Below, piece by piece: positions 7,504 through 16,007 of a stretch of 64,000 nucleotides of DNA. Origin of the DNA: Escherichia coli (GTDB lineage: Bacteria > Pseudomonadota > Gammaproteobacteria > Enterobacterales > Enterobacteriaceae); NCBI RefSeq assembly GCF_003991155.1, contig NZ_CP031293.1. One strand, 5' to 3'. The notes under the pieces were generated by a model, which had not been told where the DNA came from, ran no database searches, and saw nothing but the letters and a program-made list of their open reading frames with translations. Positions within the stretch are counted from its first letter, which is position 1. Every line of letters starts with the position of its first letter. Both the position numbers and the translations under genes were made by a program.

Positions 7504-9004
<1,501 letters not shown>

Positions 9005-9042
9005 TTAGTGGCGATCAGGCTTTTTTTGCATCTGTTTGAGAA

Positions 9043-9117
9043 CAAAAAAGAAAACCGCCGATCCTGTCCACCGCATTACTGCAAGGTAGTGGACAAGACC
9101 GGCGGTCTTAAGTTTTT
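9043..9117 (-). terminator. spy terminator: long imperfect hairpin (9054..9106) flanked by an A-run and a T-run, bidirectional
   Basis: Arms ACCGCCGATCCTGTCCAC / GTGGACAAGACCGGCGGT pair at 16 of 18 positions; U-run on both strands. Confidence 0.55.
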
Positions 9118-9128
9118 TGGCTGAAAGA

Positions 9129-9614
9129 TTATTCAGCAGTTGCAGGCATTTTACCTTTTGCCGCTGGACGTTCTGTCAGACGCTTCTCAAAATTAGCATT
9201 AAATTGCTTTTTCTGTTCCGGCGTCAGGATGTTGTAAATCTTGTTCTGGGTTTCCATGTGCGCCAGCATGTTAGCTTTGCGCTGTTCTTCCATTTTTGCG
9301 ATCTGCGCTTCAGCTTTTGCTTTATCGAAGGTATCGCTGGCAATGATGTCATGCATTGCGCGGCGTTCTTCCAGCGGCGGACGTTTCATCTGGTCACGCT
9401 GGCCTTTCATGATTTCGCGGATCTGCTGTTTCTGCGCGTCGGTCAGGTTCAGGTCTTTGAACATCATGTCCTGATGCGGACCGAACTTGCCTTTGTGGTG
9501 CATCATCGGCTTCGCGTCAGCCGGTGCTGCGGTAGTGGTGTCTGCGGCATGGGCCAGGTTAGCCGCGCCAAGAGCCAGGGTAGAGGCAACAAACAGTGCA
9601 GTTAATTTACGCAT
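9129..9614 (-). CDS. spy: periplasmic ATP-independent chaperone Spy
   Basis: 161-aa ORF with signal peptide and LTDAQKQQIREIM motif (CpxP/Spy family). Confidence 0.95.
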   Translation of the reverse strand: MRKLTALFVASTLALGAANLAHAADTTTAAPADAKPMMHHKGKFGPHQDMMFKDLNLTDAQKQQIREIMKGQRDQMKRPPLEERRAMHDIIASDTFDKAKAEAQIAKMEEQRKANMLAHMETQNKIYNILTPEQKKQFNANFEKRLTERPAAKGKMPATAE

Positions 9615-9752
9615 ATTCTATATCCTTCCTTTCAGTTATTTATTACGGCTTTCTTAAGTAGCGTGCCGTGTTGACGAGATTAACTTTACTGACTTTAGCG
9701 TCAATTAATCAGAGCAACGGTAAAACAATGAAAGTGTAAAAAACACTTTTGC

Positions 9753-9770
9753 GCCAATTATGGAGAAAAA
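9753..9770 (-). promoter_or_regulatory. BaeR box upstream of spy (TTTTTCTCCATAATTGGC on spy strand)
   Basis: Exact match to the BaeR consensus TTTTTCTCCATDATTGGC as I recall it, about 140 bp upstream of the spy start. Confidence 0.55.
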
Positions 9771-9916
9771 AAGAAAATTTGATGGAGAGTAATGAGAAAA
9801 TATTACAACACGATGATTTTGCAGAGATTATGAAGAACTATACCGGATGACTGGTGATAAATAAAGCAAATAACCAGGATTAATCTGTATTAATTTATAA
9901 GAAAGTAACTTAATAC

Positions 9917-9938
9917 CCGCAGAATGATTTCTGCGGGT
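9917..9938 (-). terminator. hairpin (CCCGCAGAA-TGAT-TTCTGCGGG) immediately downstream of astE; possible ast operon terminator
   Basis: Perfect 9-bp stem; U-tract on the minus transcript is weak. Confidence 0.4.
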
Positions 9939-9943
9939 AAGTA

Positions 9944-16007
<6,064 letters not shown>

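Follow-up and report, generated by a model that had tools for sequence, protein, structure and literature searches.

The stretch of Escherichia coli DNA analyzed here (64,000 nucleotides, referred to as the window) carries an unusually long imperfect hairpin between ves and spy, with a run of A on one side and a run of T on the other. Such an element raises the question of which transcripts it acts upon, and of whether it does more than end them. It was originally predicted that the hairpin is larger than a typical intrinsic terminator, that it may stop transcription in both directions, and that it could also be a processed RNA structure in the spy 3' UTR. We conclude, with a probability of about 0.93, that the hairpin ends the spy transcription unit as a Rho-independent terminator, that it belongs to the minus strand, and that it is catalogued as ECK120029600.

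The hairpin and its gene neighborhood

The genes that surround the hairpin are the following.

7504-8391, plus strand: cho (open reading frame list and RefSeq annotation of the identical locus)
8351-8926, minus strand: ves, the co-directional downstream gene, with its start 123 nt from the mapped spy 3' end (RefSeq annotation)
9129-9614, minus strand: spy, coding for the periplasmic chaperone Spy of 161 aa, with a TAA stop codon at 9129-9131 (open reading frame list and RefSeq annotation of the identical E. coli locus)
9944-10912, minus strand: astE (open reading frame list and RefSeq annotation of the identical locus)

The hairpin begins 20 nt past the spy stop codon and ends 123 nt ahead of the ves start. 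The site predicted for it, between ves and spy, was right in that the hairpin is intergenic; however, both genes lie on the minus strand, and the hairpin is found directly 3' of spy and not between convergent genes. A convergent arrangement does exist further along, where cho (plus strand) and ves (minus strand) overlap by 41 bp at 8351-8391, leaving no room for a terminator between them. Since this overlap has no terminator, each of the two transcripts must run antisense into the other gene. On the minus strand upstream of ves, at about 8990-9020, a block reading CTAA(C/G)GTAAATC...TGCCGATAAC is common to Escherichia, Citrobacter and some Enterobacter. This conserved block is probably the ves promoter or 5' UTR, and the single GTAAA within it we take to be half of a CpxR box.

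Reading of the sequence and a repeat finder both confirmed the long imperfect hairpin with its A-run and T-run flanks, and placed the inverted repeat at 9043-9118, with 18-nt arms matched at 16 of 18 positions and a 17-nt loop. On the plus strand the arms lie at 9054-9071 (ACCGCCGATCCTGTCCAC) and 9089-9106 (GTGGACAAGACCGGCGGT) around a loop at 9072-9088, the flanks being an A-rich run at 9044-9054 and a T6 run at 9113-9118; with the A/T flanks included, the arms extend to 28 nt with 79% complementarity (9044-9071 and 9089-9116). The minus-strand RNA folds at -44.7 kcal/mol, whereas 200 dinucleotide shuffles gave -20.2 +/- 3.1 (z = -7.8), none of them as good. The hairpin also ranked first for fold stability among 25,570 windows of 75 nt, taken from both strands of the 64-kb window (mean -16.6, standard deviation 5.5), and the pattern ACCGCCG-N30-60-CGGCGGT occurs once in the same 64 kb, against 0 occurrences expected. 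The spy hairpin is statistically outstanding, far beyond chance.

Structure of the spy-sense RNA

When folded as spy-sense RNA, the element is a nearly perfect hairpin of 22 + 3 bp. The two mismatches of the plus strand (A.C) become G.U wobbles, and what appeared as a 17-nt loop resolves into a 5-nt internal loop and a GCA/UGC mini-stem with a GUAA tetraloop. The stem ends in CCGGCGG, and is then followed directly by UUUUCUUUUUUG. The parts of the spy 3' UTR, in the order in which they are transcribed, are listed below.

9110-9128, minus strand: 3'-UTR spacer of 19 nt, UCUUUCAGCCAAAAAACUU, which includes an A6 run at 9113-9118 (T6 on the plus strand); from the sequence
9088-9109, minus strand: 5' arm of the stem, AAGACCGCCGGUCUUGUCCACU, of which the basal AAGACCGCCG is almost invariant across genera; from the fold, the alignment and pair counts
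9073-9087, minus strand: apical part, with the internal loop ACCUU on the 5' side (9083-9087) and GCA/UGC with the GUAA tetraloop (9073-9082); from the fold
9051-9072, minus strand: 3' arm of the stem, GGUGGACAGGAUCGGCGGUUUU; from the fold and pair counts
9044-9054, minus strand: U-tract, UUUUCUUUUUU, of which the first four U also pair with AAGA at the base of the stem; the K-12 allele reads UUUUCUUUUCU; from the sequence and allele alignment
9049, minus strand: putative RNA 3' end ...GGCGGUUUUCU; from Term-seq of K-12, coordinate 1825060(-), by transfer to the window

The transcribed strand thus carries what characterizes an intrinsic terminator, namely a stable G+C-rich stem followed by a U-tract, shortly past the stop codon. 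By the d'Aubenton-Carafa tail score, in our own implementation, the U-tail of the spy-sense strand reached 5.0. A consensus terminator scan that accepts loops of 3-8 nt only did not report the minus-strand site, because the 17-nt apical region exceeds this limit.

In these respects the hairpin resembles typical E. coli intrinsic terminators, such as the thrL attenuator (ECK120033737) and the terminator of astE, which are also Rho-independent and in which a G+C-rich stem abuts a U-tract past the stop codon. It differs from them in dimensions. The spy stem of 22 + 3 bp with an internal loop stands against stems of roughly 7-11 bp with loops of 3-5 nt in typical terminators. The spy hairpin folds at about -42 to -45 kcal/mol, the remaining natural parts in the published list at -25 to -28 (PMC6723963 Table 1). 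The prediction that the hairpin is larger than a typical intrinsic terminator was borne out by the published part as well, which measures 90 nt, as compared with 35-60 nt for the other listed natural E. coli terminators.

Identity with a characterized terminator

The spy hairpin is already known, as a catalogued and experimentally characterized terminator, and is not a new RNA element. The K-12 allele (NC_000913.3) is letter for letter the published 90-nt part ECK120029600 (PMC6723963 Table 1; PMC7843447), which elsewhere carries the label "ECK120029600-spy-term" (PMC9764417), and which other papers have named "the spy terminator" and used to insulate promoters. The identifier is of the RegulonDB style, and the part has found use in genetic circuits and vectors. 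The allele of the window matches ECK120029600 at 88 of 90 positions, with both differences in the distal U-tract. The two are the same element at the same locus, identical in the stem, the apical part and the first nine positions of the tail (UUUUCUUUU), and they differ by two substitutions in the distal tail (window UUUUCUUUUUUGUU, K-12 UUUUCUUUUCUCUU) that lie downstream of the mapped release site. The window allele would be expected to behave like the K-12 allele.

The behavior of the K-12 allele has been measured in several settings. A fluorescent reporter gave a termination strength of 374 (Chen et al. 2013, as cited in PMC5731345 Table 1), and RNA-seq of the part inside a circuit gave 380 +/- 98 (PMC5731345 Table 1). 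In another study it was the strongest of 34 terminators tested, with a termination efficiency of >99.5% in E. coli, Synechocystis PCC 6803 and Synechococcus UTEX 2973 (PMC7843447).

A mapped RNA end is also available at the native locus. The original prediction had named Term-seq at the spy 3' end as a check on termination, and a termination signal does map there: Adams et al. (2021) recorded a 3' end with high read scores at MG1655 1825060(-) (PMC7815308 supplementary files 1 and 3), and coordinate transfer, together with the listed flanking sequence, brings this K-12 end, ...GGCGGUUUUCU, to position 9049 of the window. The end was entered three times in supplementary file 1, covering three growth conditions (PMC7815308), and it has a Rho score of 0.95 with the Rho call "No" (PMC7815308 supplements). 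In the same study 1825060(-) was labeled "orphan", lying 123 nt upstream of ves, and was placed among candidate 5'-UTR regulatory ends (PMC7815308). Since it sits 80 nt past the spy stop codon, this label is an annotation artefact, and the end belongs to the spy terminator.

Within the species the element is close to universal. Of 5,426 complete E. coli genomes, 5,422 have the 141-nt region, which is single-copy, with a median of one place per genome (5,424 genomes). Over this 141-nt query, about 439 of 5,424 genomes reached an identity of 99% or more with the window, whereas most of the genomes carry K-12-like or other alleles. Among five sampled E. coli alleles the hairpin varied only by one C-to-U substitution, through which a C-G pair becomes U.G. 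Apart from the two positions in the distal U-tract, the window differs from K-12 at three more positions further downstream. An IS1A element was observed in strain 30EVA2 (L006, 745-1500) in the distal U-tract of the spy terminator, at about window position 9045/9046 and a few nt past the 3' end; there the hairpin is intact, and ves lies about 0.8 kb away from it.

Proposed mechanism

The spy gene is massively induced via the Bae and Cpx systems. Termination of its transcript would proceed as follows. RNA polymerase would transcribe spy, then the 19-nt 3'-UTR spacer, and then the whole hairpin, from the 5' arm over the GUAA mini-hairpin at the apex to the 3' arm. The apical mini-hairpin probably nucleates folding, upon which the 22-bp stem would zip as far as its G+C-rich base (CCGCCGG/CCGGCGG), which abuts the UUUUCU... 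tract. The zipping of the stem would pull the weak rU:dA hybrid apart, and the transcript would be released at ...GGCGGUUUUCU. Termination that is near complete (>99.5% as published) would insulate the co-directional ves from a spy promoter that is massively inducible. In addition, a 3' hairpin of such stability should shield the spy mRNA from 3' exonucleases.

Conservation across the Enterobacteriaceae

A scan with the Spy protein, using one genome per species, yielded 80 spy loci, 79 of them usable, from genera including Escherichia, Citrobacter, Salmonella, Enterobacter, Klebsiella, Raoultella, Kosakonia, Phytobacter, Cedecea, Buttiauxella and others. All 79 carry AAGACCGCCGG...CCGGCGGUUUU(U), located 15-93 nt past the stop codon, with folds of -28 to -51 kcal/mol. 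Among 21 aligned stem pairs, 98.7% of cells pair, and in eight of the pairs both partners have changed (71 cells); the observed values for pairing and covariation were not reached in any of 500 column shuffles, and no slid register came close. The tract that follows is kept as well: in 78 of the 79 orthologues, T fills 7-9 of the 10 positions that follow GGCGG. For 64 of the 79 the fold predicts a mini-helix of 3-5 bp at the apex, past the 5'-side internal loop, although its sequence differs.

The strand on which this conservation acts can be told from the pairs themselves. According to the per-pair table, G.U accounts for 217 of 1,659 stem cells (13%), each of which is an A.C mismatch on the other strand, and the sense fold is the more stable one in 75 of 79 loci, with a mean of -39.5 kcal/mol against -31.7 for the antisense fold. 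Therefore, selection acts on the spy-sense RNA. The hairpin can also be assigned to one of the two genes that it separates: ves lies downstream of spy in 61 of the 79 loci, and as the hairpin is kept in all 18 others, it belongs to spy.

As a conservation control we used the terminator of astE, located 330 bp upstream. In the window (9905-9943, minus strand) this terminator reads ACCCGCAGAA-ATCA-TTCTGCGGGT, with a poor U-tail that scored 2.2. The mean major-allele frequencies and the invariant positions were as follows.

Stem base of the spy hairpin, 22 columns: 0.973, with 14 invariant
spy codon position 1: 0.930, with 66 of 157 invariant
spy codon position 2: 0.945, with 91 of 157 invariant
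spy four-fold degenerate sites: 0.707, with 1 of 16 invariant
Flanks of the hairpin: 0.54
Loop of the hairpin: 0.59
astE terminator, stop codon and 80 nt, in 70 of the same genomes: 0.58, with 0 of 77 invariant

The base of the spy stem, that is the basal 9-11 bp, is thus conserved above positions 1 and 2 of the spy codons. The astE terminator is an ordinary hairpin of 7-11 bp whose sequence is replaced from genus to genus; it changes entirely between genera, whereas the alignment of the 79 loci leaves the spy hairpin with 18 invariant columns. Termination alone offers no obvious account of such extreme sequence conservation at the stem base. The simplest explanation would be that selection acts very strongly on this hairpin, as the exceptionally efficient terminator and 3' stabilizer of an enormously induced gene.

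The spacer between the stop codon and the hairpin varies among the 79 loci in both sequence and length (15-93 nt), and several lineages carry extra sequence around the terminator. In the Citrobacter freundii complex (L014-L017, L020, L021, L029-L031, L037, L038 and L083) an additional hairpin of about 35-45 nt, for example ATTCACGCTGTGTC...GACAGCGTGAA, precedes the conserved terminator within a spacer of 61-74 nt, as compared with 15-21 nt in other genera. Different inserts, of 85 and 93 nt, lie ahead of the spy terminator in C. amalonaticus S646 (L023) and Intestinirhabdus alba (L050). On the other side of the hairpin, in Enterobacter sichuanensis (L061, 2066-2170), the spy terminator is separated from ves by a conserved insert of about 95 nt. 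Similar inserts were found in Enterobacter, Kosakonia, Phytobacter, Franconibacter and Superficieibacter, and are absent from E. coli. The insert contains a promoter-like TTGCCT-N16-TATTCT and an ORF of 10 codons (ATGACGTTAGTAAATTTATTGACGTTGCGCTAA), and a search of this Enterobacter-type insert against Rfam gave no match.

Termination in the reverse direction

Bidirectional intrinsic terminators between convergent genes have been described from SEnd-seq, and the spy site resembles them in that its palindromic stem follows an A-run and precedes a U-run. If the E. coli hairpin worked in both directions, it would also stop plus-strand transcripts, for example cho read-through running antisense via ves, by means of the reverse hairpin and the T6 run at 9113-9118. 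We consider this unlikely. The plus-strand RNA does still fold well, at -34 kcal/mol (z = -4.2) as against -44.7 for the spy-sense RNA, and the T6 run follows it; but its stem contains two A.C mismatches, and the U-run starts 7 nt past the solid stem (UCUUAAGUUUUUU), displaced by CUUAAG, which lowers the tail score to 2.2 as compared with 5.0 on the spy-sense strand. The consensus scan did pick out a small 6-bp sub-hairpin on the plus strand, AAGACCGGCGGTCTT followed by AAGTTTTTTG, that fits the terminator consensus and might offer a weak alternative; we have not taken it as evidence of plus-strand function.

The gene order can be read both ways. Since no terminator lies between the convergent cho and ves, plus-strand polymerases could reach the spy hairpin; nonetheless, spy and ves are co-directional, and such polymerases could arrive only by read-through from cho, 650 nt away. 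In the Term-seq tables there is no plus-strand 3' end at 1825122-1825130, although plus-strand transcription may be too low to score. The A-run upstream of the hairpin (a T-run on the plus strand) is shared by 19 of the 79 loci, in Escherichia and part of the Citrobacter freundii complex, but is missing from the other 60, and the antisense fold is the weaker one in 75 of the 79. The proposed role as a bidirectional terminator is therefore not upheld, given the co-directional genes, the reverse mismatches, the displaced U-run, the lack of a listed plus-strand 3' end and an A-run confined to 19 of 79 loci. It is in these same features that the spy site departs from the bidirectional terminators known between convergent genes.

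A functional 3'-UTR RNA

It is also conceivable, though improbable, that a released or processed 3' fragment, consisting of the hairpin and a short U tail, has a function beyond termination, whether as a 3'-UTR-derived regulator, as a sponge, or as a site for ProQ, Hfq or RNase III that sets the stability of the spy mRNA. ProQ prefers terminator hairpins, and for RNase III a stem of at least 22 bp is long enough. The architecture is conserved, too, as 64 of 79 loci combine the long stem with an internal loop on the 5' side and a capped mini-stem. The basal 9-11 bp are held above the Spy codons while the neighboring astE terminator turns over. Nevertheless, strong selection for a very efficient terminator, together with a deep fitness valley at the basal G-C pairs, could alone explain this conservation. 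Nor is there a conserved single-stranded seed, as major-allele frequencies in the spacer and loop columns lie at about 0.54-0.59. An interrupted tail as short as the mapped UUUUCU is a poor one for Hfq, judging from the poly-U tails of sRNAs. The score of the Term-seq end at 1825060(-), on the other hand, is high even without deliberate envelope stress (PMC7815308), which speaks for such a fragment.

A precedent is offered by cpxP, the paralogue of spy, which yields an annotated 3'-UTR sRNA, CpxQ. Like the spy hairpin, CpxQ comes from the 3' end of an envelope-stress gene and ends in an intrinsic terminator. The 5' region of CpxQ has been described as a conserved seed. In the E. coli K-12 sequence CpxQ consists of a largely unstructured 5' region of about 30 nt, a small stem-loop, an 8-bp terminator and U8, whereas in the spy 3' UTR a 25-bp hairpin is followed by an interrupted U tail, and no single-stranded region is conserved. 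Homology between the two was considered and rejected, as they show no meaningful sequence similarity.

Database and literature searches were negative within their scope. An Rfam search of 8300-9900 by E-value threshold gave a best value of 0.66, with irrelevant eukaryotic families only, and a search of four orthologous loci at the gathering threshold returned no relevant family. A full-text literature search found no paper naming a spy 3'-UTR RNA, and nothing relevant on links to RNase III or ProQ. With a spacer of 15-93 nt that is not conserved, no Rfam match, no likeness to CpxQ and no report in the literature, the idea of a processed 3'-UTR RNA is not supported, although the 3' end of spy may leave a passive, decay-resistant hairpin fragment.

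One part of this idea bears on the stem base in particular. The near-invariant base, AAGACCGCCG paired with CGGCGGUUU, which at least 79 Enterobacteriaceae species share, might double as a sequence-specific recognition site, for a ProQ-like 3'-end binder or for a double-strand nuclease that tunes the stability of spy mRNA in envelope stress, or else the stable 3' fragment might have a role of its own. Such a second role seems to us a long shot.

The least credible explanation, to which we give next to no weight, is that the hairpin works at the DNA level, as a palindrome of the repeated extragenic kind, as a cruciform, or as the palindromic target of a protein. In favor of this, the inverted repeat is long, near-perfect and intergenic, and in one strain IS1 was inserted right beside it. 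The element is, however, single-copy in the E. coli genomes (median 1) as in the 64-kb window (one occurrence), it always lies right after spy with a U-tract, and the 13% of stem cells that are G.U pair in spy-sense RNA only and would be A.C in a DNA cruciform or on the other strand, an asymmetry by which this explanation is effectively refuted. A REP/BIME-like repeat family was likewise rejected, the element being single-copy.

Conclusions

The main result of this analysis is to re-identify the hairpin as a catalogued and heavily used terminator and to correct the orientation of the genes around it, the cross-genus conservation adding a small comparative footnote. The spy terminator is the strongest natural E. 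coli terminator in common use, and it is also exceptionally conserved in both sequence and architecture. The conserved long stem and capped tip suggest that these are selected features, which could inform terminator design, and the conservation of the stem base raises the question of a second, sequence-specific function.
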